Shown here one piece after another: positions 24,546 to 61,859 of a stretch of 64,000 nt of DNA (the first letter of the stretch is position 1; each line of letters opens with the position of its first letter). This DNA comes from an uncultured Candidatus Sumerlaeota bacterium (GTDB taxonomy: Bacteria; CAYMEV01). The stretch lies in NCBI GenBank assembly GCA_964389675.1, contig CAYMEV010000002.1:1-64000 (forward strand). Reading direction: 5' to 3'. The notes beneath the pieces are model-generated. The model was not told where the DNA came from. It saw nothing but the letters and a program-made list of their open reading frames with translations, and searched no databases. The translations under genes and the position numbers were made by a program.

Positions 24546-27500
24546 CTATGAATGTTTTGCTTCCAGTCGGGAGATAAAACCATTTATTGAACGGAGATAT
24601 GCTTTGTCTTTAAGCTTTTCTGCTTCATTTCTGGCATATTTGGCAGTTTCCAATGCTTTGGCAAATTTATGGAATGATTTGTATGCCTTTGCATGATCAA
24701 ATATATTATTTACAAGAAGAGGATTACCTTCAGGCCACAATCTTTTTCTGATGGATATTGCCCTGTTAAAATGCTTTTCAGTGAGTGCTTCGTTTTTGAG
24801 CAGAAGATATGTCCTACCGAGGTAATAATATGTATAAGCTGTATTCTGATTATCCTCCCCTATAGTTTTGAGCTGAATATCAAGAGATTCCTGAAGGTAT
24901 GGAAGAGCTTTTTCTGGCTGTCTCAACCCGTTGTATGCCTCGGCTATTCCATTTAACGGAAAGGAATTAAACTGGTGTATTTTGCCAAAAAGGCTGACAA
25001 ATATATTATAGGCTTTTTTGAAATATTTTATGGAACGTTTGTAGTCCTTCCTATGGTTATATATAACTCCAATATTGTTATAGACCATGGCTGTCTCTTT
25101 ATGCTTTCTGCTTCCCAGGCATTTTTTCTGTATTCTTGCTGCCTTTTTCAGGTATTCCTCTGCCTCATCATATTTTTTCATATTCATGTAAACATTACCA
25201 GTACTGTAATAATTGCTGAACAGGTCAAGATGCCTTTCCCCCCAGTATTTAAGGATTATTTTCCTGGATTGTTCAAACAGCTTTAAGGATTGTTTCAATT
25301 CTCCAGTGTTCATGGCTACCAGGCCCAGGTTTGTCAGGATTTTGCTTTCATCAGGATGGCCATCAGGGTGATGCTCCCGATAAATTTCAAGTTCAGTATT
25401 GTAGAGTTCCCATGCTTTCGCAAAATTGCCTATATAAAAATTTGCACTGCCAAAGCTGTGGTAAGAGCCTGTTGTCTGCCAGTGCCTCTGGCCCAGGATC
25501 TCAATATTGATATCATGAGCCTTTTTGCTGTATTTATAGTGCTTATTAAGGTCACCCAGGAAAAAATAGTTTACAGACATGCTTTCCAGCAGAGCTGCCA
25601 TAAAAGTGTGCTTTTCTCCATATGTCTTTTTCCAGATATCGAATGCCTGATTATACAGATCAAGAGCAGACTGGTAATTCCCCATCATATTTTCAACATT
25701 CCCAAGGCTTTTAATTACATTTGCAGTGTCTGGATGATCTCTTCCCAGAGTTTTTGTATAAATATCCAGTGCTTTTTCCATATAGTTTCTGCATTCAATC
25801 AATTGGGTCAATTTGAATAAATTCTGTCCGATTATCAGATATAATTTCCCTATTTCAAGGCTTTCCCCGGGGAGGGAGCCTAATTTATCATCAAGTATGG
25901 ATTTTGTTATTTCCAGTGACTGGCTATAATTGCCTTTATTATAAAGTATATCCGATTTTTTCAGGAGAAGGGCTTCACGATAAGGCCTGGAATGAACAGC
26001 ATTGCTTTTAATCTTTGATATATATGAGTTTACAGCATTAAGAGCAGCATCAAAATTTCCGATGCTTATATAGCTGTCGGCGTAATCTGTGGTGATCTCT
26101 ACCTGGATATTTTGGGGTATATTTCTGAAAAATCTGCTAAATTTATTGAGCTTTAATAATGCCTGTTCAGGAAGATGCTTGTTCAGGAATGCTTTGATCA
26201 AGCTGTGCTCAATTTCCCAGACAGGAGAAATATCCCCAGGGTTTATCCTTTTCTGTAATAATAATGCTTTATTAAAAAAAACAATGGCTGATTCATTTTC
26301 ATAGTTCTTCATTGATTCTTTGCCTGATAAAAGGCAGTATTTTTTTGCCATCTCCATTTTTTCTGATTGTTCGTAGTGAAAAGCGATCTCGGGGTATTTT
26401 GTAGGATCATTGCTGGAGATATTCTCCAATGATACAGCTGCTAATTCATGAAGCTTGCGCAGCCTTGATTTTAATTGCATTTCATAGACAGCTTCATGCA
26501 AAAGAGCATGCTTAAAAATGTATTTTAATTCAGAAAGGGCATCCCAGACCCTTTCCATCTTTCCCTTTTCAAGTATTATTCCAAGGTTCTCCTGCCTTAC
26601 GGAAGCCTGGAGAGCTCTTTTTGCGGTGAGAATTCGTATCAGTTCAAGGAGAAGGATTATTTCAAATTCCCTCCCAAGGACAGCAGCAATCTGTATGGTA
26701 TCTTTGAGGTCTTTGGATAATCTGTCGATACGGGATATTAGAATGGCATTTATCTTTGAAGGAATATGGCTGACCGCTTTTTTCTTAAGAGAGATATTTC
26801 CTGCAGAAAAATCCAGCAGGCCATTTTCCTGAAGATAAAAACAGAACTGGTCAATATAGAAAGGATTTCCTTCTGTTTTTTCAAGGATAAACCTGAAAAG
26901 CCTGTCATCGACCTTCTTTTTCAGGATTTCCTGTACATAATATCCTGTTTCTTTTCTCTTTAGCCTGCTTAAGTCGATCTCAAGACGCGGGATATCTTTA
27001 TCAGAGCTCAGTATGGGTTTAATATTCCCTTCTGATCTTCCGGTTGCAAATATAATAATTGGAAAGTCCCATATCATCCTTGTAAGTACCTTAAAGACCC
27101 CCTGTGAATCCTTATCAAGGAAGTGAATATCTTCTACCACAATAACAAGAGGATGAATGCAGCTTAGGGCTTTGAAAAATTCTTTTACAGCAAATCTTGT
27201 CACATTGGGAATATCTTTCGGCGATATGCTTTCAAGTATGGAATCTTTCAGTTTCAATCCAATAAGGGAAGCAATGACTGACTTTATGCGGATCAGTTCA
27301 GATATCTGCTTATTACCAGGTGCAATCCTATCTAATTTATTAACCAGTTCTGAGTAGATCGCTTCAAAAGCATTCCTTTTATCCTCAAGGCTGGTCTTTT
27401 TATGCTGGTCAAAGTAGTTGGAAAAATAATAGACAAATGGTGAAAGGCTTTTTCTGACAAATTCATCTGTCTGCAGGATTGCAAGGTTGATAATGCCCTG

Positions 27501-28877
27501 CTTTTTTATATCCTTTAAGGATTCATCAACAAGCCTTGATTTGCCGATCCCTGCTTCACCGTAGATGGATATAATCCCTGCGAATCTGTTTTCAAAAATG
27601 CTTTTGCTTATATTTTTAATTTTATCAAGTTCATGTTTTCTTCCAATGAATTCATAGGAGTATTCCTTATCCATATAATCCCCTTTTTTGCCTGAGAGCC
27701 TGTATACCTGTACAGCAGCTCTTTTTCCCTTTAATCTCCTCTTTCTCAGTGATTTAAAATTATAGGATAAGGATACCTGGTTCATTATTGATTCAGATAT
27801 GATTATGTCTCCAAACTTTGCAAGATTTACCAGCCTTGCTGATATATTGACAATATCCCCCAGGCAGGTATATGCAGACCTGAGTTTTGAGCCTAATTCT
27901 CCTGCATATACTGTTCCATTGGTAACCCCTGCTTTTATCTTATTCCCGAACTCCTTTTTAATGCTATCTATAAACCTGAAGGCTCTCTTAATATTATTGC
28001 TGTATGAAACAGGAGCACCGAAAAAAACCAGCATATTAGCATTTTTATCGCCAAAATCCAGGTGGTTGAAGTATCCACCATATAATTGGACATAGGCCAT
28101 CAGTCTGGTAATAAAAGCATTTAAGGCTGAGAATGACCGGGATTCTTCAAATGAGATAAATATGCTTATTATCTCTCGGAATTCACCATCCTGTGGCTGA
28201 TGAACTATGATATCCGGGAAAAAGGCTTCCAGAACATTAATAGGGATTGGGAATTTTTCAGGTTTAGATTCCCTTATGGAGTAATCTGATGGTTCTAATC
28301 TGTAATAACCTGGTTTAATTTCAGTGAATTTAGTTGATTTATTGCTGATCTTACTGAATAGATTAGCATCAGCTATTATCTGATTATCCCGGCACAGGTG
28401 CTCTGCTTTTGCAGACCCGTCGATTGCCTCGCCCCGGAAATAATATGCTTTAGTATTCCCGCTGCCTGCAATTCCCCACTCAATATTTCCGAAGGATAAA
28501 CCCAGCTTAACTGATAGTGAAAATAATCCAAATTTTGTGCTATAGATTTTATTTTCATTAAAAGAAGCAATGATATTAAAGGCAGAATTGCAGATATTCT
28601 GTACAGCCTCTTTACCTCGAAATATAGCAGTGAAGGCATCTCCGGCAAAACCTGAGACAAAACCTTTATTTGCATAAATTATTTCAATTAAAGGGTCAAA
28701 GACACTGTTTAAGATCCCCGAAAGGATCTCTGCACCCTCTTTATCCTTTCTCATCAGTTTTTCGGTTATACCAGTAAATCCGGTGATATCAAGAAAGAGG
28801 GAAGCGGCCTTTAATGATCCCTTTGACCTGCCTTTTTCATATTTTTCTGCAATAAATTGAGGAAGAAGGTTTTTCAT
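24546..28877 (-). CDS. sAC-like tandem class III cyclase + STAND NTPase + TPR (42-aa kinesin-light-chain-type repeats), paralogue 1
   Basis: FLDITGFT, FAGDAF, DFGDK, YTCLGDIVNISAR, GEAGIGKS, VVEDIH and GNPF motifs; HPDTA-type repeats. Confidence 0.92.
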   Translation of the reverse strand: MKNLLPQFIAEKYEKGRSKGSLKAASLFLDITGFTGITEKLMRKDKEGAEILSGILNSVFDPLIEIIYANKGFVSGFAGDAFTAIFRGKEAVQNICNSAFNIIASFNENKIYSTKFGLFSLSVKLGLSFGNIEWGIAGSGNTKAYYFRGEAIDGSAKAEHLCRDNQIIADANLFSKISNKSTKFTEIKPGYYRLEPSDYSIRESKPEKFPIPINVLEAFFPDIIVHQPQDGEFREIISIFISFEESRSFSALNAFITRLMAYVQLYGGYFNHLDFGDKNANMLVFFGAPVSYSNNIKRAFRFIDSIKKEFGNKIKAGVTNGTVYAGELGSKLRSAYTCLGDIVNISARLVNLAKFGDIIISESIMNQVSLSYNFKSLRKRRLKGKRAAVQVYRLSGKKGDYMDKEYSYEFIGRKHELDKIKNISKSIFENRFAGIISIYGEAGIGKSRLVDESLKDIKKQGIINLAILQTDEFVRKSLSPFVYYFSNYFDQHKKTSLEDKRNAFEAIYSELVNKLDRIAPGNKQISELIRIKSVIASLIGLKLKDSILESISPKDIPNVTRFAVKEFFKALSCIHPLVIVVEDIHFLDKDSQGVFKVLTRMIWDFPIIIFATGRSEGNIKPILSSDKDIPRLEIDLSRLKRKETGYYVQEILKKKVDDRLFRFILEKTEGNPFYIDQFCFYLQENGLLDFSAGNISLKKKAVSHIPSKINAILISRIDRLSKDLKDTIQIAAVLGREFEIILLLELIRILTAKRALQASVRQENLGIILEKGKMERVWDALSELKYIFKHALLHEAVYEMQLKSRLRKLHELAAVSLENISSNDPTKYPEIAFHYEQSEKMEMAKKYCLLSGKESMKNYENESAIVFFNKALLLQKRINPGDISPVWEIEHSLIKAFLNKHLPEQALLKLNKFSRFFRNIPQNIQVEITTDYADSYISIGNFDAALNAVNSYISKIKSNAVHSRPYREALLLKKSDILYNKGNYSQSLEITKSILDDKLGSLPGESLEIGKLYLIIGQNLFKLTQLIECRNYMEKALDIYTKTLGRDHPDTANVIKSLGNVENMMGNYQSALDLYNQAFDIWKKTYGEKHTFMAALLESMSVNYFFLGDLNKHYKYSKKAHDINIEILGQRHWQTTGSYHSFGSANFYIGNFAKAWELYNTELEIYREHHPDGHPDESKILTNLGLVAMNTGELKQSLKLFEQSRKIILKYWGERHLDLFSNYYSTGNVYMNMKKYDEAEEYLKKAARIQKKCLGSRKHKETAMVYNNIGVIYNHRKDYKRSIKYFKKAYNIFVSLFGKIHQFNSFPLNGIAEAYNGLRQPEKALPYLQESLDIQLKTIGEDNQNTAYTYYYLGRTYLLLKNEALTEKHFNRAISIRKRLWPEGNPLLVNNIFDHAKAYKSFHKFAKALETAKYARNEAEKLKDKAYLRSINGFISRLEAKHS

Positions 28878-28990
28878 CTCTAAACATATATTATCAAGTA
28901 TAAACGATATTATAATTATTATATTTCTATTGGTAAATTATACAAAGAAAAACAAAAAGGATTGTCTGTTCTTATAAAAGGCATTTAGAT

Positions 28991-29019
28991 TTGACAGCGT
29001 GGAATAATTTTATTAGAGT
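28991..29019 (+). promoter_or_regulatory. Sigma70-type promoter
   Basis: TTGACA-17 bp-TAGAGT, ending 8 bp before the ATG at 29028. Confidence 0.5.
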
Positions 29020-29027
29020 CTAATCTG

Positions 29028-31319
29028 ATGAAAAGATCGGCCATATCTTTATTAATTATCATCTTTGGCGGTATTTTATTATGGCAGTACAGGATAAATA
29101 CTGAAAAGGCTTCTGTCATTCGAGTCAAAGATTTCTCAATCAAGGGTGAATTCCAGTATCCACTATCCCTTTCGGGCCACATTATCGAAAGAAAGCAGAT
29201 AAATTTTGGATACAGCCATTATGATAAAGACTTTAGAAGGGATTTCTACAATCTGGAAGGTATGATTTTTAGTGCTGAGCTGCCGGTTACCGGTTCAGAT
29301 AATACTGTGGATTTCTACATCAAGCGCAGGAAAAAAAAGGAATTTATAAAACTGAATGTATTTATAGATAATCATCTTATATCAAACTATATGATAGACA
29401 GTGAAATACAGAAAATAACAGTGAAATTCAGAGATAATAATATAGCTGAAGGTAAAAAGCTTCTGACCATATCATCTTCTTCCCCGAAGATGAATACCCC
29501 AGTTTCCTCCATATATGAGAAAAAGAAAGAGTTTTCTTTTATTATATCTGATCTCAATGTACAGGGATGTGACCCCAAGGCCGTTTCTCAAAGGTATAAT
29601 TATCAGAAATGGGTTTCTGACAGGTACTTTATCCCAAACAATGCCTCTGCAACTTTTGATCTGTTTCCCATGGACAATCCATATCTGTTCTTTTCATACC
29701 ATATTAAGGATATAAATCATGAAGATCTCGAAATACCCGGGGATTTTTCAGTAAGTATAAATGCATTCCATAAAAACAGAAGCAAGGTGATTAAATCATA
29801 TAATCATCGAACGGACATTGGGTTTCAGATGGCGCTTATTCCTCTTGAAAAGGACTATGACAGAATTGAAATAGCTTATAAAAGTAAATGTCCGGATAAA
29901 TTTCTTGCGGTTGGAAATATTATGATTCTAAGCAGGACAGAAAGAAGCAGTAAAAGGGATATATTTCTTATCTGCGCTGACACATTAAGAAGGGATCATC
30001 TGGGGGTTTACGGCTATAACAGGGATGTTTCACCAAATATCGATAATTTTTCAGAAGATGCTGTAGTTTTTTCAGAAGCAGTATCATGTTCATCCTGGAC
30101 TGTCCCTGCTGCCTTCTGTCACTATATCGGCCAGTATCCATTCAGGCATTCCTATGAATGGGGATATAATATGCTGATTCCGGATTCCTGCAGTTCAGCA
30201 GTAGAATCGTTTCAGAATGCTGATTTTATTACCATTGGCTTGTTCGCTAATCCTATATTATCAGATAAATCAGGCTATGCTGAAGGTTTTGACCTTTTTT
30301 ATGAAAATGACAGATATGACAGGATACTGGGATCAGAGATAACGGAATCAGCAATTGATGTTCTGGATATCCTTGGTGATTTTAATTTGTTTGTCAATCT
30401 ATGGTACTTTGACCCTCACGCTACCTATGACCCTCCTGGCCTTTTCAGCGGAAATTATGTATTTCAGGGGGATAGGGACGATTATCTTAAAATCAGGGAG
30501 GTCCATGAGAAAGTAATAAACGGATATGATGAGGATACAATCACAGAAAATGTAGATACACTTATTGACCAGTATGACAGCGAAATACAATATCTTGACA
30601 TGTGCCTGGGAGAGCTGTTCAGTTACCTGAAAAGCAGTCAGTTATATGATGGCTCCATCATAGCGTTTTTTTCCGATCACGGTGAAGAATTCTATGAGCA
30701 TAAGAACCTCGATCACAGCCATGCATTATTTGATGAATCCATAAATATCCCCCTTATCTTTAAGTTTCCTGGTAATGATAATAAAGGGGCTGTTATGGAT
30801 AATCCAGTGAATATAACAGACATATTTCCCACGATCTGGGATATTATGCAGATGGAAAGGATGGATGGCTATAAGCTGGGGCAGAACCTTACAAATCAGG
30901 ACTATGACAGGCTTTTAATTGCTACTTCTTCCCGTATAAGCCCGATGAAGATAATGTTGAAAAAGAATAACAGGAAATATATAAGGTTTTATAAGGAATT
31001 TAATTATATCTATGAAAATCATTTTAAGAAGGGCAAAACTGATTTTTTTGCCAGATTGAGCAGGTATAACTCCCGAATCCATCCAAAAATCCTGTATTTT
31101 GACCTTGATAAAAATCCTGGAGAAAAATTTTCGGAAAACAAAGAATCAGGATCAGACAGATTTAAGCAGTATTTTAAAAGCACCCTTAAGGGTATGGAAA
31201 ACAGTCTATTGAATATGTACAGTATTGGCAGACTCGGTGATGAAGTTGAGGGGGAAGTTCAGCTTGAAATCGATCCTGAGCTTGTGGATGCACTAAAATC
31301 CCTTGGATACATTAATTAG
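29028..31319 (+). CDS. Membrane-anchored sulfatase-like (alkaline phosphatase superfamily) hydrolase/transferase
   Basis: ADTLRRDHLGVYGY, WTVPA, DPHATY and SDHGE motifs; C-terminal LKSLGY. Confidence 0.82.
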   Translation: MKRSAISLLIIIFGGILLWQYRINTEKASVIRVKDFSIKGEFQYPLSLSGHIIERKQINFGYSHYDKDFRRDFYNLEGMIFSAELPVTGSDNTVDFYIKRRKKKEFIKLNVFIDNHLISNYMIDSEIQKITVKFRDNNIAEGKKLLTISSSSPKMNTPVSSIYEKKKEFSFIISDLNVQGCDPKAVSQRYNYQKWVSDRYFIPNNASATFDLFPMDNPYLFFSYHIKDINHEDLEIPGDFSVSINAFHKNRSKVIKSYNHRTDIGFQMALIPLEKDYDRIEIAYKSKCPDKFLAVGNIMILSRTERSSKRDIFLICADTLRRDHLGVYGYNRDVSPNIDNFSEDAVVFSEAVSCSSWTVPAAFCHYIGQYPFRHSYEWGYNMLIPDSCSSAVESFQNADFITIGLFANPILSDKSGYAEGFDLFYENDRYDRILGSEITESAIDVLDILGDFNLFVNLWYFDPHATYDPPGLFSGNYVFQGDRDDYLKIREVHEKVINGYDEDTITENVDTLIDQYDSEIQYLDMCLGELFSYLKSSQLYDGSIIAFFSDHGEEFYEHKNLDHSHALFDESINIPLIFKFPGNDNKGAVMDNPVNITDIFPTIWDIMQMERMDGYKLGQNLTNQDYDRLLIATSSRISPMKIMLKKNNRKYIRFYKEFNYIYENHFKKGKTDFFARLSRYNSRIHPKILYFDLDKNPGEKFSENKESGSDRFKQYFKSTLKGMENSLLNMYSIGRLGDEVEGEVQLEIDPELVDALKSLGYIN

Positions 31320-31359
31320 GTAAAACTATTATATAAATCGGTACTGTTTTTCGGATTAA

Positions 31360-33498: not shown

Positions 33499-33710
33499 TA
33501 AGCCGTAATCCTCCAAAAATTATTATAAATCCTATCTTTTACCTTTAGGATTTTTTGTCAATTAATATAGGATTTATTATGGCCAGAACCAGGACCTGCC
33601 CATTGAATTTTATTTCTTGTCTATGCGGTTGATTAAAGCAGTAAGCCAGACAGCAGACATGCCTGGTAAATGGATTAAAATATAAAAAAAATGGGATTGA
33701 TTATTAAGTT

Positions 33711-34982
33711 TTATGAAAGCATGCCGTTTACCAGGCTGAGCATCATTCTGGGATTTCCCAGCAGAACCCCTGAGTGCCTTAATAGAAGAGCAGGGAGTTT
33801 CCTGGCAAAATGCCAGTGCAGGTCTTTGTTAATTCTCCTGACACCCGTTTCTAATTCAGCTGGCGACATTTGATTGGGTTTGAACATGGCATTTGCCCAC
33901 CCATAGTGAGACCTGTCCAGATCGGTAAGAAGCCTGCCCTCTCTTTTAAATTGCTCATAGATCGGAGTGCCCGGGTACAGGGTCAGAATATAAAAATGGG
34001 CATAATCGACCTGCATTTTTTTTATAGCATGGACAGTATTATCAAATACATTCCTGCTGTCCGTATCAAATCCGAATATGAAAAATCCGGTGACTGATAT
34101 TCTCCTTGAATGGAGCTTTTTTATGATTTCCTTATAATCTTCAACCTTGTTCTGGTGTATAGATGCCCATTCCAGAGATCTCGGGTTGACTGTCTGAAAT
34201 CCCATTTGAACATAAAAGCATCCGGATCTTGCCATAATATCAAGAAGTTCTTTATTTCTGGCTATAGTAGTTGGTGCCTGTACAGACCATTTCTTCTTCA
34301 GTGGGATTATCCTTTCAAAAAGCTTTATGGCATAGTCTTCATCTGCAAAAAGGTTGTCATCCACGAAGAATACTATTTTCTGTTTTAAGCCCTTCATCTC
34401 CTCATAGACCAGGTCTATGTCACGCTTACGGTATGAAGACCAGGGCACCTGGGGCAGATAACAGTATGCGCAGGTATTAGGGCATCCGCGTGTGGCCTGG
34501 ATACAGGCAAACCATGACTGTTCATTAAGAAGATCTCTGCGCGGGATAGGCACATCATTCATATCTACAGGAGCGGGGTTGCTGTATACCTCTTTAATTC
34601 TGCCGTTCAATGCATCATCAAGTACTTCTTTCCATACATATTCACCTTCGCCAATAACCACTGCATCTGAATGTTTAAGGCATTCCTCCGGCATAAGGCT
34701 TGGATGGGGGCCTCCGAAAATGATCTTTGATCCATTTTTGCGGAACCTGTCTGCAATGTCATAGGCCCGTTGAGAAGTAAAAGTAGTAACCGTAATCCCT
34801 ACCAGGTCAAAATGGTCTTTATAAGGGATTGTATCCCAGTCTCCATCAATTATCTCAATATCATGGCCCTGCGATAGAGAAGCAAGTATTCCCAGATTAA
34901 GAGGCGTGAACTTCACACGGTTCAGGATGCTGTAAACACCCTTCTTTATGAACCATGGTGGTTTTAACAGCAGTATCTTCAT
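33711..34982 (-). CDS. Cobalamin-binding (class B) radical SAM protein
   Basis: N-terminal B12-binding region (PLNLGILAS...GGPHPS); RGCPNTCAYC, FVDDN, GFDTD and YPGT motifs; ATGA overlap with the upstream gene. Confidence 0.9.
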   Translation of the reverse strand: MKILLLKPPWFIKKGVYSILNRVKFTPLNLGILASLSQGHDIEIIDGDWDTIPYKDHFDLVGITVTTFTSQRAYDIADRFRKNGSKIIFGGPHPSLMPEECLKHSDAVVIGEGEYVWKEVLDDALNGRIKEVYSNPAPVDMNDVPIPRRDLLNEQSWFACIQATRGCPNTCAYCYLPQVPWSSYRKRDIDLVYEEMKGLKQKIVFFVDDNLFADEDYAIKLFERIIPLKKKWSVQAPTTIARNKELLDIMARSGCFYVQMGFQTVNPRSLEWASIHQNKVEDYKEIIKKLHSRRISVTGFFIFGFDTDSRNVFDNTVHAIKKMQVDYAHFYILTLYPGTPIYEQFKREGRLLTDLDRSHYGWANAMFKPNQMSPAELETGVRRINKDLHWHFARKLPALLLRHSGVLLGNPRMMLSLVNGMLS

Positions 34983-36118: not shown

Positions 36119-36150
36119 GGTTCCTTTAACATTGGTGAACTTTCGTCGGA

Positions 36151-36179
36151 ATAATACAATGATTGATGGCATTCTTCAA
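36151..36179 (-). promoter_or_regulatory. Sigma70-type promoter of the radical SAM pair
   Basis: Minus strand TTGAAG-17 bp-TATTAT. Confidence 0.5.
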
Positions 36180-36246
36180 GAAAAAAATATGGATAATATG
36201 TTTGCAATCGGGATTTTATGAATTAAAATGAAAGAAAAATTATAGG

Positions 36247-53686: not shown

Positions 53687-54179
53687 AGTTAAAAACAACA
53701 TAGAGCTGAATTTATCCTGAATTCTTTCCTCAAAACCAGCCTTATTATAGATTCATAATTTCATAGTTTTCCTGTAAAAATATATATCTGGCCTGATGAA
53801 TTTATTATGGAAGATGGTATTAAAGCAGGTAATATTATATATAGGCTGCCAGCGGTTTTTCACAGGGACAAGGCTTTTAAGCCTATATGTATTTTTTATC
53901 AGTGTATCTGGAGGTGAAAGATCACATAGACAGCTGTTATGGTTGTTCTTTGAGCTCTCTTTTATGTATTTTCCGTGAGCTTGGTAACACAATAAAATAC
54001 TTTCCAAAGGGTTAAAATGATATTAGAAAAGCAGAAACATGGCTTAAATATAAATATTGAGATTATGCCACAAATGCTTTAAGATAGGTTTTAATAGAGC
54101 AATAAAACGAAAGAAAGCTTAGACTGAACATTGAAATATAAAAAATTTGCGTGATCAATACATTTATGAGGAGAACTTT

Positions 54180-55679
54180 ATGAAATTCAGAGAATTCGCT
54201 GCTTTTACAATGCTGATTTGTCTTTTTTGCCTGTCATTAACTGCAAATGATGGTTCTGACCGCTATCATCCTGACCGGGCAGTAGTCCTCCAGCATCTTT
54301 ACGCTCCAGTTACTAATACGGAGGGATATACTGTACTGGAAGAGGATATGGCCGGTGGTGCGGACGGTGCACCGGCATTCAGATGGGCCCGCCCTTTTAC
54401 TCTTGCAATTATACGTCTGGCAGCATGGGACACTGCTAATGAGTTTGGCGTATCACCCATTCCAATGGCATTGTTTGATATGACTACTGAATTCGCGGAT
54501 ACACCTGTAAGCAGAGAAGAAGGCAAACCCCCCCGCGGAAGGCATCCGGGAAATTCTCATGACGGGGGAATAAATATAGACCTGGGATATTATATGACCA
54601 GCTTAAAGGGCCTTTATGAAGAACCTGATTTTTCCGTTTGTGATGAGCACTATTCAGAAACAGCAAAGGATGAGGATGGAAAACCAAAAGATGCATATGA
54701 GTGCCTCGGTCCAGCAAACAGGCTTGACGAAAAAAGGCAGGCATATTTTTTCCTTCAGCTGTTCAAGATGCATATTGACCTTTTTGATTATATGCTTTTT
54801 GAATCAATCGGAGTTGATTATCATGTCAAAAAAGCTGTGCTGGAACAAATCAGGAAATGGCAGTCTGAAAGCAGATACTGTATTAATGATCAAATTATCA
54901 GGGAAATGGATACAATAATGACCTGCGCACGCTGGGAAGGATGGGCAAAATTCCATCATCATCATACCCATATACGTTTTCATGATCTTGATTCTTCGGG
55001 AGAATTCAGGCGTGTATTCGAAAAGCTTTATGAACAGGAGAGGGCTATGGAGCTTGCTGTCCAGAAGGAGCTGAACCCTGAAAAGGCTGTATTTATAAAG
55101 GCTGATCTGTATTCATACAGCCTGACGCGTTATATTGAAGCAAGCCTGTTGAGTGAAGATCCTTCCAGAATAAAAAAAGCTGAATATAGTCTTGATGAAG
55201 GAGAATGGATATCATCAGAGGAACCTGATAATAATTTCCGCTGCATGCTGGATGTACAAAAGAGGATACCTTCTCCTGAAAGGAAATTGATTCTAAGGGC
55301 AAGATATGAGACGGCTGACGGGAATTCAGAAGAGATTGTCAGGGAGATATATTCTCCTGCAGTGGATGCGCAGGCCAGGATCAGAATAGACCGTAACAAG
55401 TTCAGGACCTTTTGTGAAAAAAAAGAGGAGGGAGGCTCTTCAGTCTGGGAATGCAGGCTTGAATATCCCCAGTATTATAATTATTATATAACAGATCTCA
55501 AATATGTATTTTATATAAGAGAATTTCCTGAGAAACCTGAAAATGTCGAAGCAGACAGGACTGATAATTCCTGCAGGTTTGTCCAGAAAGAAGGGAACAC
55601 TGTTGAAATGATTGAGGCAGTCATTACTCTGACTGCTCGAATGAGGATCAGTGTCCCTGTATATATCAACATTGAATGA
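54180..55679 (+). CDS. Secreted MepA-like (LAS-type Zn) peptidoglycan endopeptidase with C-terminal beta-rich domains
   Basis: Signal peptide; HPGNSHDGGINID and HHHHTHIRF resemble MepA HxSHxxGxDxD and HxxHxH; GAGGAG RBS before 54180. Confidence 0.6.
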   Translation: MKFREFAAFTMLICLFCLSLTANDGSDRYHPDRAVVLQHLYAPVTNTEGYTVLEEDMAGGADGAPAFRWARPFTLAIIRLAAWDTANEFGVSPIPMALFDMTTEFADTPVSREEGKPPRGRHPGNSHDGGINIDLGYYMTSLKGLYEEPDFSVCDEHYSETAKDEDGKPKDAYECLGPANRLDEKRQAYFFLQLFKMHIDLFDYMLFESIGVDYHVKKAVLEQIRKWQSESRYCINDQIIREMDTIMTCARWEGWAKFHHHHTHIRFHDLDSSGEFRRVFEKLYEQERAMELAVQKELNPEKAVFIKADLYSYSLTRYIEASLLSEDPSRIKKAEYSLDEGEWISSEEPDNNFRCMLDVQKRIPSPERKLILRARYETADGNSEEIVREIYSPAVDAQARIRIDRNKFRTFCEKKEEGGSSVWECRLEYPQYYNYYITDLKYVFYIREFPEKPENVEADRTDNSCRFVQKEGNTVEMIEAVITLTARMRISVPVYINIE

Positions 55680-55729
55680 TCTGCAGATCAGAATTACCGA
55701 TTTTTTAATTATCAGCTGGACTTATTCTC

Positions 55730-55945: not shown

Positions 55946-57790
55946 ATGAAAACCAGAAACAATACGGTTAAATATTTAATTATTATCCTGATGCTTTCAG
56001 CTGTCGCAAACTCATACTCAGCATATCTTGAATTTGCCCCGCAGAAGGTTTTTCAGCCTGATGGAAAAGAGCTGAATATATATGCTTCCGGAGATGAATT
56101 CTGCAACTGGCTTCATGATGCAGAAGGTTTTACCATTGTACAGCATCCCATAAGCGGATATTATGTCTATGCTGTTGAGATGGAAGGTAATCTGGATGCT
56201 TCCTGTCATATCGCAGGAGATGTTGATCCATATACCTTAGGTATTGAAAAATGGCTTAAGGTCAGAAGTGGAGAATATGCAAAAAGAAGAGGCGATTTTA
56301 AACTTACGCTGAAAGATATGCCTAAAGCACCCAATCAGGGCACACTTAACAATATTGTGGTTTTTATAAGGTTTTCAGATGATGAGGAATTTACAAAGCT
56401 GAATTCATATTATCACAGTCTTTTCAATCCGGGATCGGACATATCCATGTACAGCTACTTCTCTGAAGCATCATATGGCAGGAGTTCCATAATATCGCAT
56501 TTTTACCCCATCCCGCCTTCAGCAACCGTCATATCATACCAGGATTCATATCCGAGAAGCTATTACAGGCCTTATAATGCCGTTACCAACCCTGATGGAT
56601 ATACAAGTTCCCAGAGGACTGCCAGGGAACATACACTGCTGAAAAACTGCATAGAAGCAATAAAAGAAGATATCCCTTCCGATCTGGATATTGACGCAGA
56701 CAATGACGGGTATGCTGATAATGTCTGTTTTATTGTAAGGGGCGGGGTTGACGGATGGAATGATCTCCTTTGGCCCCATATGTGGGTTTTGTATTCCTAT
56801 GATGTAAGAATTAATCAAAAGCGGGTTTATGTCTATAATTTCAATATTGAATCATATACAACAAGCAGCAGTGTGATATCACATGAAATGTTTCATTCTC
56901 TGGGGGCTCCTGACCTTTATCACTACAACGGCGACGGTTTTTCTCCTGTTGGTTCCTGGGATATTATGGAAAGCACCCTTAATCCTCCACAGCATATGGG
57001 AGGATATATGAAATATCGATATGGAAACTGGATTGATAATGTTCCGCAGATAACATTCTCCGGAACCTATATTATAGAGCCCCTGCTTATGCCTGAAGAC
57101 AATCTGTTTAAGATTGCTTCACCACTATCATCAGCTGAGTACTTTATTGTGGAATTCAGGAGAAAACTTGGCGTTTTTGAGTCATCCCTCCCCGGAACAG
57201 GGCTGCTCATCTACAGGATAAATACTGATGAGGATGGAGAGGGAAATGCTGGCGGACCTCCAGATGAAGTATATATTTTCAGGCCAAACGGGACCCTGTA
57301 TAATAACGGGAATGTCAACCTTGCTTTTTATCATCAGGATGCCGGCAGGACTCAAATAAATGATAATACAAACCCTTACAGCTTTTTCTCAGATGGAACC
57401 CCGGCAGGCCTCGAGATATCCAATATTCAGCAGACAGGTGATATTATGAGTTTTTATGTCGAAATAAAACATCCTAATATCAGGACTGATCAGCCAGAGA
57501 ATATTAGGGGAAAATCAGCAATATTAAAAGGGACTGCAAACCCTAAGGGCTATAATTGTTTCGTCCATTTTCAGTGGGGAACTACTGAACAGTTCGGAAA
57601 TTCCACAAAATATAAGAGGATTGGAAACAATGATGAGAATATTTCTTTTGAGACAGGCTTATCAGGTCTTTTGATGAATACTACATATTATTATAGAGCA
57701 GTAGTAACATCCCCGTTATGCGGTTCTGTATACGGAGAAACCAGGCAGTTTAAAACAAAAAACCCTCTTGGAGCTATTATACCGCTTTGA
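55946..57790 (+). CDS. Secreted M6-family (immune inhibitor A-like) metalloprotease
   Basis: QPDG...GDE propeptide; WPH, HEMFHSLGAPDLY, WDIM and GLLIYRI motifs. Confidence 0.9.
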   Translation: MKTRNNTVKYLIIILMLSAVANSYSAYLEFAPQKVFQPDGKELNIYASGDEFCNWLHDAEGFTIVQHPISGYYVYAVEMEGNLDASCHIAGDVDPYTLGIEKWLKVRSGEYAKRRGDFKLTLKDMPKAPNQGTLNNIVVFIRFSDDEEFTKLNSYYHSLFNPGSDISMYSYFSEASYGRSSIISHFYPIPPSATVISYQDSYPRSYYRPYNAVTNPDGYTSSQRTAREHTLLKNCIEAIKEDIPSDLDIDADNDGYADNVCFIVRGGVDGWNDLLWPHMWVLYSYDVRINQKRVYVYNFNIESYTTSSSVISHEMFHSLGAPDLYHYNGDGFSPVGSWDIMESTLNPPQHMGGYMKYRYGNWIDNVPQITFSGTYIIEPLLMPEDNLFKIASPLSSAEYFIVEFRRKLGVFESSLPGTGLLIYRINTDEDGEGNAGGPPDEVYIFRPNGTLYNNGNVNLAFYHQDAGRTQINDNTNPYSFFSDGTPAGLEISNIQQTGDIMSFYVEIKHPNIRTDQPENIRGKSAILKGTANPKGYNCFVHFQWGTTEQFGNSTKYKRIGNNDENISFETGLSGLLMNTTYYYRAVVTSPLCGSVYGETRQFKTKNPLGAIIPL

Positions 57791-57965: not shown

Positions 57966-60900
57966 TTGGAATTTGAAAGATTAATACCACATTTTATCTT
58001 AAAGAATTTCCAGGAGGGCGTATATCAGGGCAGATTTACATGTGCTGTCCTGTTTGCTGATATTTCAGGTTTTACAGCTCTGACGGAGAAACTGACCGGA
58101 TATGGAAAGGCAGGGACAGAAATCCTTTCCGCCATAATAAATGATATATTCACTCCCTGTATTAATTCGGTATACCAGAGGGGGGGCTTTATCTCAACAT
58201 TTGCCGGAGACGCGTTTACTGCTTTATTCCAGAATAAATCAGGCAATGCCCTTTTAGCATCAAAAGAAATAATTGATGAAATAAAAAGACAGCATATAAA
58301 ACAGACAATATATGGTAATTTCGAAATCTCTGCAAAGATCGGTTTATCCTATGGGCCTGTAGAATGGGGTATTACTGGAAAAGGCAGTAAAAAGGCATAT
58401 TATTTTAAAGGCCCGGCTATCGACCAGGCAGCTAAATCTGAGTATTTATGCGGAAAAATGGATATAGTGTCAGATTCTCAATTTTATGAGGAATTTAAAC
58501 TGCAGGGGAAATTCAGGAAGAATTGCAGAGGATATTTTTTTCTGATTTCCATTAATGAAATGGATAAAGCAGAAAATTCATATACATCCCTTAAGCCTGA
58601 TAAGGATTCAGTTCCTGCATTTATTCCTGAAAGCCTTCTGAGCGCCAGGCCCCTTGATGAAATGAGGGATATTGTGAGTGTATTTCTTTCTTTCAGGCAA
58701 ATTGACAGCGATTATGACAGCATGGATGAATTTTCAAGCTTTCTGCTGAAATCAACAGAAACCTGGGGAGGTTATTTCAGTAGAATAAGTTTCGGCGACA
58801 AAGGTGGGTCAGCCCTTATAAATTTTGGCATGCCTGTAGCCTATGAAGACAATATTTCACGTGCTTTGACCTGTACCAGTGAAATTATCAGAAAATACAA
58901 AAGCAATGTAAGGGCAGGTATTACCTTCGGAAGGCTGTTCTCCGGGTATGTCGGAAGCAGGGTAAGAGCAGCCTATGATGTGCTGGGGGATTCAGTGAAC
59001 CTTTCAGCAAGGATAGCCATGAAAACTGAATGGGGAAGTATATGGCTGTCAAAAAGTGTTTCTGAAGTCGCAAAAAAAGGATTTTTGATACATTATATCG
59101 GAGAATTTTTATTTAAAGGCAAATCAGGGAAGACGGATGTTTATCAGCTGGGGAGTGAAAAATCCAGTATATTGCTGACATATAAGGGCTCCATCTTTGG
59201 AAGGGAAAAAGAGATAAATCTTCTTAAAAAGTCTATAAATCCGATATTTAAAGGCCGGTTCGGTGGCATAGTATATATATATGGAGAGCCCGGGATTGGA
59301 AAATCAAGGCTTGTTCACGAGGCTGTCTCTCGTATCCACAGAGAAAGGAAATTATGCACATTACAGTGTGATGGTATTATTAGAAAAGCCTGGAACCCTT
59401 TCATATATTATTTATTCCTTTATTTTGCCCAGGACCATGACAGGCCTGATCAAGAAAATGAGCTGAATTTCCGAAACAGGATGCAGTTCCTTATAGATAT
59501 GCTGTCAAAATTAGATGCTGATTCGCAAAAGATAAGCATAGATGAATTAAGAAGAGGAGAACCTTTTATTAAAGCTCTCCTCTCTCTTGATACCAAAGAT
59601 ACGCTTTATGAGGAGCTGGATGCAAAACACAGGCACGATAATACTATCTATGCACTGAAGGAGTTTTTTAAGGCCTTAAGCCTGTTAAATCCTCTGATAA
59701 TGAATATTGAAGACATTCATTATCTGGATACAGAATCCTCCATTGCATTATGGCATCTTACAAGAAATATAGAGAAATTTCCGATTATTATCATATGTAC
59801 CAGCAGGTATTGTGATGATGGCTCAAAACCAGAAATTTTCAGTGACAGCAATATCCCAAAAAATGAAATAGACCTGGAAAGACTCACAGAGGCATCATCC
59901 GAACAGCTAATTGCTGAAAAATTAAAACATAGGCCAAATAATGAACTGGCAGGCATTATATTGGAACGTACCAGCAATAATCCTTTCTTTATTGAGCAGT
60001 TTTGCTTCTATCTGCTTGAAAATGGTTATATAGAGATTGAAGAAGGATTATGCAGTATTTCAAAGAAGACAGAGGACATACCATCAGGAATCAATCAGAT
60101 TCTTATTGCAAGAATAGACAGGTTATCGAGAGAACTGCGCGAGTTAACGAAAATAGCCTCTGTATTTGGGAGGGAATTTAATAATAATATTCTGTTCAAG
60201 ACAATTAACACCCTGTATGAACTGATAAGAATATTTGAGACTGCTGATAAAAGCAGATTTGATACTGAAGCAGTCAAGCGACTCGTAATTTCCGACAGCA
60301 GCCTGCTTCTTTCTGCAGGAGAAAGAGAGAGCATATGGGAAAATATTGATGAGATAAGGTACATATTTAAGCATTCACTGCTCAGCGAAAGCGCATATAA
60401 TATGCAGATGAAGGAAAGGCTGAGGATATTGCACCGGACAGCCGGTGAGACAATTGAAAAGATAAAGGGATTAAAAGATGATAGATATATAGATTTAGCC
60501 TACCATTTTGAAAGGGCCGGAATAAAGGACAAGGCAATTGAATATATGAGCAAAGCAGGCGATTATTTGAGGAAAACATATAAAAACAAGGACGCTCTTG
60601 AAATGTATAAAAGGCTTGTAAGTCTGCTTGAGGAACCTGCAGGGATTCTGGAAACGAAACTAAAAATCGGTGAAATCATGGAACTTACCGGCAATTGGGA
60701 GAAATCTGAGAAGATATTCAGAGAGTGTGTCAAAGAATCGTTAAAACTGGGCAGAAAGAATCTCCTGTCCGATTCCTATCAGGCATTGAGCGATACCCTG
60801 CGATGGAGATATAAATACAGTGAAGCTCTCGAGGCAATTAAGATTTTCCATGATCTGTCAAAAGAGAGAGGAGACAAAAAGGGTACAGGTACTGCTTTCG

Positions 60901-61859
60901 GCTATTATGGGACAATTTATGGAATGCTGGGCGATTTTCAAAAATCGCTGAAATATTTTAAGAAATACAGGAAGATTGCAGAAGAGATTGATGACCATTT
61001 AGGAGCTGCTACTGCTACAGGAAATATGGGTATTGTATATTTGAACCTGTGTGAATATGAAAAATCGCTGGAATGCCACCATATCAATAAAGAATTAAAG
61101 GAAAAGCTTGGTGATAAGCGAGGAATTGCATCAGCTGTAGGGAATATGGGAAATGTATATTATTATCAGGGCAAATTTGATTTAGCAGTCGAATGCTATG
61201 AGCTTAACAGGAAATACCTTGAAGAGATAGGGGATAAAAGGGGAATGGGGAAAGCGTCAGGCAATATAGCATTTGTATATTTTGATCAGGGCAGGTATAG
61301 AGAAGCTCTTGAGCATATTGAAATTGATAAAAACATCTCTGATGAACTGGGCGATAAGTATGGCATTGCACACTCTTTAGGGCTTATGGGGGATATTTAT
61401 GCTAAATTGGGAAAAAAGAAAAGGGCTCTTGGTTGTTATGAAAGAGCAATAAATATTTTTAATGATATTAAAATCAGGAATTCATCATTATTAAAATGCA
61501 TTCTTGCCAGGGGGGATCTATTGATTCAGCAAAAGGACATAAATTTGGCTCAAAAGTCTAATAATGAGCTGTTCGAACTTGCAAAGAAAATGAAAAAGAG
61601 TGACTATATTTTTAATGCAAGGCTTCAAAAATGCAGGATAATGGGGAAGATAGACTCTGAAAATGCAATAAAATGCCTGCAAAAGCTTATCAGCAATGAA
61701 ATTGATGACCAGAGCAAAGCTAGGCTCTATTATGAGCTCTACAGTATTGAGAAAAAAGATGACTACAGAAAAGAATGCATCAGATTATACAGATACTTAT
61801 ATGAAAAAATACCAAAATATGGATATATGGAGAAAATTAAAGAATTAACTGATAATTAG
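57966..61859 (+). CDS. sAC-like tandem cyclase + STAND NTPase + TPR, paralogue 4
   Basis: FADISGFT, FAGDAF, SFGDKG, YDVLGDSVNLSAR, GEPGIGKS, NIEDIH and NNPF motifs; 40-aa repeats; TTG start. Confidence 0.92.
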   Translation: MEFERLIPHFILKNFQEGVYQGRFTCAVLFADISGFTALTEKLTGYGKAGTEILSAIINDIFTPCINSVYQRGGFISTFAGDAFTALFQNKSGNALLASKEIIDEIKRQHIKQTIYGNFEISAKIGLSYGPVEWGITGKGSKKAYYFKGPAIDQAAKSEYLCGKMDIVSDSQFYEEFKLQGKFRKNCRGYFFLISINEMDKAENSYTSLKPDKDSVPAFIPESLLSARPLDEMRDIVSVFLSFRQIDSDYDSMDEFSSFLLKSTETWGGYFSRISFGDKGGSALINFGMPVAYEDNISRALTCTSEIIRKYKSNVRAGITFGRLFSGYVGSRVRAAYDVLGDSVNLSARIAMKTEWGSIWLSKSVSEVAKKGFLIHYIGEFLFKGKSGKTDVYQLGSEKSSILLTYKGSIFGREKEINLLKKSINPIFKGRFGGIVYIYGEPGIGKSRLVHEAVSRIHRERKLCTLQCDGIIRKAWNPFIYYLFLYFAQDHDRPDQENELNFRNRMQFLIDMLSKLDADSQKISIDELRRGEPFIKALLSLDTKDTLYEELDAKHRHDNTIYALKEFFKALSLLNPLIMNIEDIHYLDTESSIALWHLTRNIEKFPIIIICTSRYCDDGSKPEIFSDSNIPKNEIDLERLTEASSEQLIAEKLKHRPNNELAGIILERTSNNPFFIEQFCFYLLENGYIEIEEGLCSISKKTEDIPSGINQILIARIDRLSRELRELTKIASVFGREFNNNILFKTINTLYELIRIFETADKSRFDTEAVKRLVISDSSLLLSAGERESIWENIDEIRYIFKHSLLSESAYNMQMKERLRILHRTAGETIEKIKGLKDDRYIDLAYHFERAGIKDKAIEYMSKAGDYLRKTYKNKDALEMYKRLVSLLEEPAGILETKLKIGEIMELTGNWEKSEKIFRECVKESLKLGRKNLLSDSYQALSDTLRWRYKYSEALEAIKIFHDLSKERGDKKGTGTAFGYYGTIYGMLGDFQKSLKYFKKYRKIAEEIDDHLGAATATGNMGIVYLNLCEYEKSLECHHINKELKEKLGDKRGIASAVGNMGNVYYYQGKFDLAVECYELNRKYLEEIGDKRGMGKASGNIAFVYFDQGRYREALEHIEIDKNISDELGDKYGIAHSLGLMGDIYAKLGKKKRALGCYERAINIFNDIKIRNSSLLKCILARGDLLIQQKDINLAQKSNNELFELAKKMKKSDYIFNARLQKCRIMGKIDSENAIKCLQKLISNEIDDQSKARLYYELYSIEKKDDYRKECIRLYRYLYEKIPKYGYMEKIKELTDN

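Follow-up and report, generated by a model that had tools for sequence, protein, structure and literature searches.

A genome-wide family of soluble adenylyl cyclase-like STAND-TPR proteins in an uncultured Candidatus Sumerlaeota bacterium

Four long genes of one and the same design lie within the stretch of DNA analysed here (the window, 64,000 nucleotides of an uncultured Candidatus Sumerlaeota bacterium), and the question they raise is whether such proteins guard the cell against foreign genetic elements or serve as sensors in its ordinary signalling. A sequence-only reading had described each of them as a twin class III cyclase (C1-C2) joined to a STAND ATPase and a TPR array, and this description is confirmed for all four open reading frames (ORFs), which are located as follows.

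24546-28877, minus strand: paralogue 1, ORF of 1443 aa; twin cyclase ~27678-28877, STAND ~26262-27677, TPR array ~24546-26261 (limits by BLAST)
36247-40335, plus strand: paralogue 2, ORF of 1362 aa; twin cyclase 36247-37446, STAND 37447-38826, TPR array 38827-40335
40405-44400, plus strand: paralogue 3, ORF of 1331 aa; twin cyclase 40405-41592, STAND 41593-42984, TPR array 42985-44400
57966-61859, plus strand: paralogue 4, ORF of 1297 aa with a TTG start; twin cyclase 57966-59165, STAND 59166-60620, TPR array 60621-61859

Together, these ORFs amount to 16,311 bp of coding sequence. All four match AAA_16 and many TPR families in Pfam, and three of them carry two stretches of Guanylate_cyc (PF00211) above the curated cut-off of 21.9 bits, with scores of 45.5, 51.5 and 62.0 bits; the matches of paralogue 1, for example, are Guanylate_cyc twice, AAA_16 and TPR_12/TPR_10. 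Paralogue 3 scores 19.7 bits for Guanylate_cyc and thus falls below the cut-off, yet it aligns over its full length with the other window copies. The Pfam scan of the four window proteins found no HTH domain, and a kinase domain is likewise absent from them. The catalytic and NTPase motifs that had been claimed are present in every window copy, namely DITGFT or DISGFT, FAGD, GDK and the catalytic Arg, together with Walker A (GIGK[ST]), Walker B (ED) and the (G/N)NPF motif. In particular, DITGFT, FAGD, GDK, N and R are all intact in paralogue 1, and the specificity residue of paralogue 4 is Asp. What had been overlooked is that paralogue 3 has Ser in place of the transition-state Asn (IISLSSR versus IVNLSAR).

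The claimed resemblance of this domain order to that of mammalian soluble adenylyl cyclase (sAC, ADCY10) is backed by Pfam, by phmmer and by Foldseek searches with predicted structures, ADCY10 being the top match in the PDB by sequence as well as by fold. Namely, phmmer aligns both C1 and C2 of paralogue 4 with ADCY10 (E 1.2e-19; residues 18-168 and 230-352), and the AF2 model of residues 1-411 of paralogue 2 (pLDDT 93.1, pTM 0.90) has human sAC as each of the best 24 Foldseek matches listed, with both halves covered, TMq of 0.78-0.81, E of ~1e-29 and 22-23% identity. In layout the likeness extends along the chain, since both have a predicted STAND/P-loop region after C1 and C2, and helical repeats beyond it. 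The model of residues 400-900 of the same protein (pLDDT 89.5) matches Apaf-1 (1z6t, TMq 0.55), MalT (8bob, 0.49) and the archaeal STAND-TPR protein 6mfv (0.46) at E of ~1e-9, and also CED-4 and NRC2. With MalT and 6mfv (E 4.8e-9 and 9.2e-9, respectively) it shares the STAND core fold, Walker A and B and a TPR-like sensor thereafter; the output of MalT, in contrast, is a C-terminal DNA-binding domain, while here it is an N-terminal cyclase enzyme. There are also differences from ADCY10. The proteins of this genome are 1260-1495 aa long, whereas full-length sAC (sACfl) is given as 187 kDa, and they occur in 26 copies per genome as opposed to a single gene. What is more, the position before FAGD is Lys in ADCY10 and is never Lys in the 26 copies (S/T/G/H/Q/N/A/V). 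We take this Lys to be the bicarbonate-binding residue of sAC, located in its degenerate site, and since it occurs in none of the 26 copies, regulation of the catalytic core should differ from that of sAC. As to the remainder of the mammalian protein, a 2025 biochemical study of the full-length enzyme regards its C-terminal region as a predicted STAND domain bearing a P-loop, and reports having found no sACfl-specific regulator (PMC12802110).

Is this, as had been proposed, a local expansion? The claim does not survive a census of the genome: 26 intact twin-cyclase STAND-TPR ORFs are scattered over 15 contigs of the 3.57-Mb assembly, adding up to 106,794 bp or 2.99% of it. Screening the long ORFs yielded 50 STAND-TPR proteins overall, 20 of them with a Ser/Thr kinase and two with a single cyclase (G000:C3:16719-20012 and 22802-26125); with three further Guanylate_cyc ORFs, cyclase genes number 31 in all. 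The catalytic residues of class III cyclases are two metal-binding Asp, a substrate Lys and a transition-state Asn and Arg. Both Asp, the C2 Lys and the Arg are each present in 26 of 26 copies and the Asn in 24, the exceptions, both with Ser, being paralogue 3 and C8:133496. The specificity residue is T in 15 copies, S in two, D in seven and G in two, Walker A (GK[ST]) is found in all 26, and the acidic pair of Walker B in 25. Taken together, residues and predicted folds make the four window genes relatives of mammalian sAC that appear to be active. That said, the copies need not be equally active or all make cAMP, since two have Ser for Asn and two have Gly at the specificity position.

The sensor part is where the copies differ most. 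Paralogues 2-4 are 31-34% identical to the first; region by region, identity among the window copies is 35-46% for the cyclase and 35-42% for the STAND part, and drops to 16-27% in the C-terminal region. Among paralogues of the whole family the corresponding medians are 36%, 37% and 24%, and among sister pairs with G001, the only congener in a lineage of two known species, they are 57%, 58% and 44%. The combination of a divergent TPR part with conserved catalytic and NTPase residues was therefore described correctly, the C-terminal identity being the lowest in both comparisons. Between this genome's family and G001 there are 14 clean sister pairs and one trio, and the window copies fall in different deep subclades that are older than the split from G001, which rules out the possibility that they are recent tandem duplicates. 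Judging from identities of 31-46% and from the 14-15 copies that have a sister in G001, the copies are old, and the sister pairs and the trio show long-term retention. At the same time, the family has a median identity to the congener of 51.6% (n=15), compared with 68.9% for flanking genes (n=67; Mann-Whitney p 2.8e-5). Of what the sequence-only reading had expected, namely copies that are not conserved one-to-one and a sensor part that evolves fast, the former does not hold for the 14 pairs and the trio, and the latter does, as the family outpaces its flanks and diverges most in the TPR part.

At the conserved syntenic site of the congener G001, three of the window's four copies have no counterpart, and two copies occur elsewhere in that block. 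Paralogues 1 and 2 are without a sister in G001 and are missing at the syntenic site (on G001:C22 in the case of paralogue 1), and the sister of paralogue 3 lies off the syntenic site on G001:C195. Only paralogue 4 has a positional orthologue (G001:C98), at 50% identity between flanks of 62-71%. Copies are thus gained and lost on a conserved backbone, and conflict genes behave likewise.

Gene context was surveyed by a Pfam scan that covered 31 window ORFs and, for the remaining 22 copies, 159 surrounding ORFs. These neighbours are mostly metabolic (sulfatases, peptidases, permeases, cofactor and amino-acid enzymes), and no conserved partner gene was found among those scanned around the 26 copies; the genes stand alone. 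The genome encodes six cNMP_binding domains in five proteins, two of them within 3 kb of a copy as against 0.42 expected by chance (p ~0.05). The claim that no cNMP-binding effector lies next to any copy consequently stands in the window, by Pfam, and fails family-wide, where two of the 26 copies have one. One such protein, adjoining a copy, carries T2SSE domains of a secretion/pilus-type ATPase, and another, 209 aa long, may be a CRP-type regulator, judged by length alone.

The explanation that we favour, with a probability of roughly 60%, is that each gene codes for a sensor adenylyl cyclase that is soluble and self-contained, and that together they form a cytoplasmic ligand-gated repertoire feeding a few cAMP receptors. 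The data above show how the domains are ordered and folded, which residues are conserved, how many copies exist, how they diverge and which genes surround them; the cAMP product, the gating by ligand and the role in signalling we infer as follows. The C1 and C2 halves fold together as in mammalian sAC to form a single active site, with C1 supplying the two metal-binding Asp and C2 the adenine-selecting Lys, the Thr/Ser/Asp and the Asn-Arg pair. Behind the cyclase come a STAND ATPase switch of the MalT/Apaf-1 type and a TPR superhelix, which would act as the sensor for a ligand, most likely a metabolite, peptide or protein of the cytoplasm. Ligand binding would lift autoinhibition, the STAND core would swap ADP for ATP and open or oligomerise, and the cyclase so freed would make cAMP. 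In the model of MalT-type mechanisms, an inducer likewise lifts autoinhibition before ADP-to-ATP exchange and multimerisation (PMC6468293). Because it is chiefly the sensor that varies among the 26 copies, many inputs would be reported into one messenger, to be read by about five cNMP-binding proteins, and the cyclase family would belong to a larger STAND-TPR sensing set, of which the 20 Ser/Thr-kinase outputs are also part. Several points count against this explanation. With 31 cyclase genes and five cNMP-binding proteins, input specificity is hard to place; the family outpaces its flanks, and its copies turn over on a conserved backbone; and the Ser and Gly substitutions in some copies, like the missing bicarbonate Lys, speak against uniform activity and against sAC-like regulation of the core, respectively.

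Could the same findings be the marks of an immune system? In that case, the TPR arrays of NLR/Avs-like conflict sensors would detect phage, mobile-element or competitor proteins, and the cyclase would release an alarm nucleotide acting in trans. Avs proteins have the same effector-STAND-TPR order, and the fold matches include Avs3 (8dgc, E 3.6e-7), but the effector here is a cyclase, as opposed to the nuclease, protease or NADase of Avs. The divergence in excess of the flanking genes, greatest in the TPR part, and the turnover at syntenic sites point the same way, as does one copy (G000:C8:133496) whose neighbours are CRISPR ancillary genes, namely those for Card1, a Cas_APE2256 protein and a CARF-like adenosine deaminase. 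There are also weak, partial matches to Pycsar cyclase (PycC) models at E of about 1e-12 to 1e-4 (1.5e-12 to 4.5e-4 in three of the four window proteins, none in paralogue 3), albeit with no adjoining cNMP_binding effector of the Pycsar type in the window by Pfam. Against this, a PADLOC scan of the four window proteins gave generic TPR and weak PycC models only, with Avs, bNACHT and other STAND defence models matching none of them. Defence-type neighbours are absent for 25 of the 26 copies among the ORFs scanned, a cell-killing effector domain is absent, and 101 pattern matches to relatives in viral contigs yielded no confirmed case. Moreover, the 14 sister pairs and the trio have persisted since the two lineages parted at ~69% median protein identity, and a survey of STAND defence clades in prokaryotes, published in 2026, mentions a cyclase neither in its text nor in seven supplements. 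The immune interpretation put forward by the sequence-only reading thus failed on models, neighbours and viral contigs alike, and we regard it as unlikely. A shade less likely again is a broader version, in which the 26 twin-cyclase and 20 kinase-STAND-TPR proteins would be the counterpart of an NLR repertoire, that is, fast birth-and-death receptors filling ~5% of a small genome, whose TPR sensors detect proteins of foreign or kin origin (phage, prey, neighbours) and whose outputs are a second messenger and phosphorylation and not direct killing. On balance, ordinary signalling seems to suit the family better than defence against phages.

Some or all copies might make a product other than cAMP, such as cGMP or a pyrimidine cyclic nucleotide, or be scaffolds or pseudo-enzymes. 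The variable specificity position (T/S 17, D 7, G 2), the Ser for catalytic Asn in two copies, the sub-threshold Pfam score of paralogue 3 and the weak Pycsar matches all lean in this direction. Yet a Lys paired with Thr, Ser or Asp is the adenylyl-cyclase pattern among class III cyclases, the purine-selecting Lys is present in 26 of 26 copies and so paired in 24, and both metal-binding Asp and the Arg are invariant, which speaks against dead enzymes; we find it improbable. Far more so is a function as regulators of radical-SAM/RiPP clusters, in the manner of the TOMM kinase/cyclase fusion or of AfsR/LAL-type STAND regulators. What suggests it is that three of the four window copies lie no more than 1.6 kb from a radical SAM gene (21783-24299, 34979-36172 and 45304-46512) and that, in NCBIfam, the proteins match TIGR03903 (TOMM kinase/cyclase fusion) best, together with the HaaT and FxSxx TPR proteins. 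Genome-wide, however, four of 54 radical-SAM matches fall within 3 kb of the 26 copies versus 3.7 expected (p 0.50), and the congener keeps the same genes (60-78% identity) without adjoining cyclase genes; these two results largely refute it. The TIGR03903 match, for its part, scores 127-142 bits where the cut-off is 705.75, and is confined to the cyclase-STAND part (profile positions ~341-929), without the N-terminal kinase, and a cyclodehydratase family is absent from the Pfam matches in the window.

Relatives of these proteins are numerous: of 8,000 candidates scored, 1,454 reach E<=1e-10, and cluster representatives at E<=1e-30 number 5,292. Those from uncultured lineages align over their full length at 33-47% identity, are annotated as 'tetratricopeptide repeat protein / class 3 adenylate cyclase', and include members from Candidatus Delongbacteria, Cloacimonadota/Cloacimonetes, Marinimicrobia, Atribacteria, WOR-3, Dependentiae and Bacteroidota. 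Five other genomes hold sets of roughly 11, 8, 19, 4 and 2 long ORFs, a lower copy density than the 26 in 3.57 Mb here. The family is thus large and already annotated, and multi-copy sets are known in other lineages; our literature search found no paper on these bacterial relatives, and we know of no experimental study of them. A further parallel is offered by Rv0386, Rv1358 and Rv2488c of Mycobacterium tuberculosis, which combine a class III cyclase, an ATPase, TPRs and a LuxR HTH. They resemble the present proteins in that a MalT-type ATPase and helical repeats come after the cyclase, and in belonging to an expanded cyclase set, but they have one cyclase domain that needs dimerisation and a C-terminal HTH, whereas here two halves are fused and an HTH is missing. 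One source counts '16 adenylate cyclases' in that species (PMC3938503).

In this 3.6-Mb genome of a sediment bacterium, ~3% of the sequence is given over to a single kind of sensor, with cAMP as predicted product, and an estimated ~5% to STAND-TPR sensors of all kinds. If our explanation is right, this points to an unusually cAMP-centred, eukaryote-like form of cytoplasmic sensing. Bacterial proteins with the sACfl layout, intact residues and a soluble one-chain design could be tractable models for sensing by the C-terminal part of sACfl, and the 26 diverged copies could serve as a natural sensor panel on one constant output. Fast divergence coupled with positional turnover also makes the family a test case for separating signalling from immune STANDs by sequence alone.

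As regards the locus itself, the junction at 35814-37046 is spanned with zero differences by a contig of an independent public run; the order of genes at this point therefore does not stem from an error in a single assembly. Finally, paralogue 3 has the lowest GC3 among the 26 copies (0.285), and its TPR array includes 120-bp tandem units at 43480-43917.

A search of the whole genome holding the window (G000; 3.57 Mb in 58 contigs, 93.8% complete), with the protein of the window copy that starts at 36247 as query, recovers 26 ORFs that align to it from residue 1-7 onwards, each joining a C1-C2 class III cyclase, a STAND ATPase and a TPR array in one protein. All 26 of these twin-cyclase copies are open, measure 1260-1495 aa and are spread over 15 contigs; together they occupy 106,794 bp, or 2.99% of the genome, at a density of 7.3 copies per Mb, the highest among the genomes examined. 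A BLAST screen over all 443 ORFs of at least 600 aa finds 50 STAND-TPR proteins in total, namely the 26 twin-cyclase proteins, 20 that begin with a Ser/Thr kinase, 2 with a single cyclase and 2 of other kinds, in a genome where only 130 ORFs reach 1000 aa. The kinase-bearing proteins are about 1080-1880 aa long, and some stand in tandem (contigs C8, 47155-58867, and C36, 1267-8765). Four twin-cyclase copies, named here by their start coordinates, lie in the window, and their ORFs match exactly the positions claimed in the sequence-only reading:

24546-28877, minus strand: twin-cyclase copy, ORF
36247-40335, plus strand: twin-cyclase copy, ORF, in tandem with the 40405 copy
40405-44400, plus strand: twin-cyclase copy, ORF
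57966-61859, plus strand: twin-cyclase copy, ORF with TTG start

In each of the four, Pfam finds Guanylate_cyc (in two stretches), AAA_16 and many TPR families, the Guanylate_cyc match of the 40405 copy scoring 19.7 bits, under the cut-off of 21.9. The motifs attributed to them earlier, DI[ST]GFT, FAGD, GDK, the catalytic Arg, Walker A GIGK[ST], Walker B ED and (G/N)NPF, are present in 4/4 according to an alignment of the four and a column read-out, which also reveal a feature absent from that account, namely Ser in place of the transition-state Asn in the 40405 copy. A contig of an independent public run bridges 35814-37046 with zero differences, so that the arrangement of genes where the 36247 copy begins is not tied to one assembly. 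The TPR array of the 40405 copy contains, at 43480-43917, three 120-bp tandem units with 72% matches, corresponding to 40-residue repeats; internal repeats of high similarity were looked for in the other three window copies and none were found.

The best cyclase match among PDB sequences (phmmer) is human ADCY10, the mammalian soluble adenylyl cyclase (sAC), with E 1.2e-19 and with both C1 (18-168) and C2 (230-352) aligned. For an AlphaFold2 model covering residues 1-411 in the 36247 copy (65 homologues, pLDDT 93.1, pTM 0.90), Foldseek lists catalytic cores of human sAC in every one of the best 24 rows (E about 1e-29 to 1e-26, TMq 0.78-0.81, identity 22-23%), with the soluble two-domain portions of membrane cyclases ranking next. 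The model that spans residues 400-900 (pLDDT 89.5) matches Apaf-1, MalT (8bob), CED-4, plant NRC2, Avs3 and the archaeal STAND-TPR protein 6mfv, which identifies the central module, as modelled, as a true STAND core. For the arrays at the C-terminus, the best match is to LGN/Pins-type TPR superhelices, at E about 1e-28. In the alignments, two metal Asp fall on C1, and Lys, Thr/Ser/Asp, Asn and Arg on C2, the split expected for one predicted active site per chain.

Across the family, the column read-out shows both metal Asp, Lys, Arg and Walker A kept in 26/26 copies, the Walker B pair in 25/26 and Asn in 24/26. The specificity position is occupied by T in 15 copies, D in 7, S in 2 and G in 2. 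Since identity of the cyclase part among copies is only 29-55%, this conservation argues for the copies being active enzymes. One difference from ADCY10 concerns the Lys before FAGD, the bicarbonate-binding residue there: none of the 26 copies has Lys at this position. No membrane anchoring is apparent in the copies, the strongest hydrophobic windows being mostly the Walker-B strand and not helices. The copy at C23:12348 has a possible N-terminal hydrophobic stretch, which may stem from an over-extended ORF start.

What had been proposed earlier was a local expansion of four genes. This proposal is not supported: the 26 copies are dispersed over 15 contigs, and local tandem expansion is rejected because the four in the window fall in different old subclades. 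The tree in question (FastTree, cyclase+STAND part, SH-like support only with no bootstrap, midpoint root) comprises 26 rows from G000, 18 from its sole congener G001 and 21 from other lineages, the phylum being represented by these two genomes only in the collection searched. G001 gives 22 matches; 18 long ORFs were recovered from it for the tree, four of these 18 being cut at the N-terminus by contig ends. There are 14 clean G000-G001 sister pairs, with support of 93-100, and one unresolved trio including the 57966 copy, and so the bulk of the expansion is, judging from the tree, older than the split between the two genomes. For two window copies, 24546 and 36247, the tree shows no sister in G001. 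That genome is fragmented (270 contigs, 91% complete), such that the lack of a sister can mean that it was not assembled, unless the syntenic site is intact.

Sister pairs have a median identity of 57% in the cyclase, 58% in the STAND and 44% in the C-terminal part, and the 325 paralogue pairs 36%, 37% and 24%, respectively, the figures for the repeat region being rough and alignment-dependent. Over the full length, the median is 51.6% for 15 pairs versus 68.9% for 67 non-STAND flanking ORFs at the same loci (Mann-Whitney p 2.8e-5); among the flanking genes, a kinase-STAND orthologue is as low as the family itself, at 49%. As sister pairs span 38-79% protein identity, synonymous sites would be saturated and dN/dS is unsuitable for them. 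The backbone of contig C22 of G001 is complete at 59-78% identity (838-aa radical SAM protein, prolyl oligopeptidase, two radical SAM proteins, nucleotidyltransferase, radical SAM protein, DUF2130) and has neither the 24546 copy and the sulfatase gene beside it nor the tandem pair 36247 and 40405, with flanking genes only about 80-200 bp apart at the missing-copy sites; two other twin-cyclase copies lie elsewhere in the same block. The 57966 copy has a positional orthologue on C98 of G001, with 50% identity versus 62-71% for the flanks, and other positional orthologues stand at 46% (flanks 62-69%), 55% (62-80%) and 38% (71-76%). In other words, given the sister pairs, their low identity relative to the flanks and the copies missing from the syntenic sites, this is a family kept over long times, fast-diverging and mobile in position.

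Over 24401-44400, contigs of four public DNA runs hardly depart from the window sequence, the few differences being at low depth, and for this reason give no measure of diversifying selection; the apparent joints in them, with sides of 21-27 letters, are most likely cross-matches between paralogues. A foreign origin was rejected on composition, the family being near the genome norm (median GC 0.398 versus 0.410 for other long ORFs; GC3 0.414 versus 0.423). The sole outlier is the 40405 copy, whose GC3 of 0.285 is the lowest of 26, the next lowest being 0.363; the window copies rank 1, 2, 4 and 5 lowest in GC3.

How might such proteins work? The analysis shows their folds, catalytic and NTPase residues that are intact, a sensor that varies, and a soluble design that stands alone. 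Following the STAND paradigm of MalT (PMC6468293), a ligand on the TPR sensor would relieve autoinhibition, the STAND core would then swap ADP for ATP and multimerise, and the N-terminal effector would thereby be switched on. With an active site built within one chain, multimerisation would be unnecessary to form it. Control by release of an inhibitory contact seems more likely, and would parallel the lower activity of full-length sAC, given in PMC12802110 as about 3-fold below the specific activity of the truncated form. The product is most likely cAMP, because of the Lys and Thr/Ser/Asp. Genome-wide there are 31 cyclase genes, counting three further Guanylate_cyc ORFs, versus 6 cNMP_binding domains in 5 proteins, and this many-to-few relation points to numerous inputs converging on a single signal.

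The gene context examined comprises 31 ORFs of the window and, around the other 22 copies, 159 ORFs up to about 6 kb away. No recurrent partner gene is found there; apart from a few exceptions, these neighbours encode sulfatases, peptidases, permeases, enzymes of molybdopterin, folate and amino-acid metabolism and similar proteins. A cNMP-binding gene lies within 3 kb of a copy in 2 cases versus 0.42 expected (p about 0.05): one copy is 2.6 kb from such a protein, and another is divergent from a secretion/pilus ATPase that is a candidate direct cAMP target. One copy is near a GGDEF gene. Two loci of G000 that lie beside copies, with their positions in sequence excerpts, are as follows:

C31:12305-14095 (excerpt L026, 10706-12496): T2SSE-type secretion/pilus ATPase with N-terminal cNMP-binding and MshEN domains, divergent from one copy
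C8:127896-131883 (excerpt L021, 397-4384): Card1-type CARF nuclease, Cas_APE2256 protein and CARF-like (Cas_NE0113) adenosine deaminase fusion, 1.6 kb from one copy

The genes at the second locus are of type III CRISPR ancillary type. As for the copies themselves, they could be read as conflict or defence sensors in the manner of NLR or Avs proteins, and we consider this improbable, as it failed every test that could be run. PADLOC assigns a STAND defence model to 0/4 window copies, giving only generic TPR matches and weak Pycsar-cyclase ones, and 101 pattern matches in the viral contigs scanned yielded zero confirmed relatives. A radical-SAM/RiPP link, suggested by the window, where radical SAM genes adjoin 3/4 copies, was likewise discarded: genome-wide, 4/54 radical-SAM matches lie within 3 kb of copies versus 3.7 expected by chance, and the link is absent in the congener.

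The family is known and widely annotated, with a layout common to mammalian ADCY10. Of 1.84 billion cluster representatives, 5,292 match at E ≤ 1e-30, and the alignments of the best 150 cover practically all 860 residues of the query. Another collection gives 1,454 proteins at E ≤ 1e-10 among 8,000 candidates scored, labelled 'tetratricopeptide repeat protein' or 'class 3 adenylate cyclase'; the organisms named are Candidatus Delongbacteria, Cloacimonadota/Cloacimonetes, Marinimicrobia, Atribacteria, WOR-3, Dependentiae and Bacteroidota. Twin-cyclase matches at E ≤ 1e-40 occur in 17 of the 399 other genomes selected by the search tool. Five of the 17, searched in full and 2.2 to 6.5 Mb in size, hold roughly 11, 8, 19, 4 and 2 such long ORFs, so multi-copy sets are a recurrent trait of the family. 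A 2004 paper reportedly dealt with sAC-like cyclases in Chloroflexus. The literature searched for the architecture yielded nothing on the bacterial twin-cyclase STAND-TPR family or on its expansion; 'Delongbacteria' receives only one or two mentions in each paper that uses the name, and none in the titles or abstracts of those listed; we know of no experimental study of the family. What is new here is the size of the set (26 copies that take up 3% of a small genome, with 20 kinase siblings), the sequence evidence that all copies look active, and long retention combined with fast divergence and positional turnover.

Several other genes deserve mention. Large ORFs (510-1327 aa) at 1-2430, 54147-55679, 55946-57790 and 62005-63699, and at C1:50008-53991 of G000, have no Pfam match at cut-offs of E 1e-5 for the window and 1e-6 for the C1 locus; the congener's syntenic stretch lacks the 62005-63699 gene. 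At 31360-36172 (minus strand), prolyl oligopeptidase, B12-binding radical SAM and radical SAM/SPASM genes lie together, an order that the congener shares with 65-77% identity, and may form a peptide-modification (RiPP-like) unit. The 838-aa radical SAM protein at 21783-24299 has an orthologue on C22 of G001 that reads as two ORFs split by a stop (excerpts L001, 19314-20000, and L050, 121-1854; 78% and 67% identity), a feature that may reflect a sequencing error, a genuine break in the gene or a stop codon that is recoded. An ABC exporter gene followed by a TldD/PmbA-type metallopeptidase pair occupies 16431-20903, sets of this kind often processing exported peptides, and a YgjP-like metallopeptidase lies at 12902-13597. 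Finally, 2633-4213 encodes a 341-aa protein with a single C-terminal class III cyclase domain beside a 174-aa ORF; neither this ORF nor the N-terminal half of the 341-aa protein has a family match. The pair is kept in the congener at 76-78%, where it directly adjoins a twin-cyclase copy (excerpt L043).
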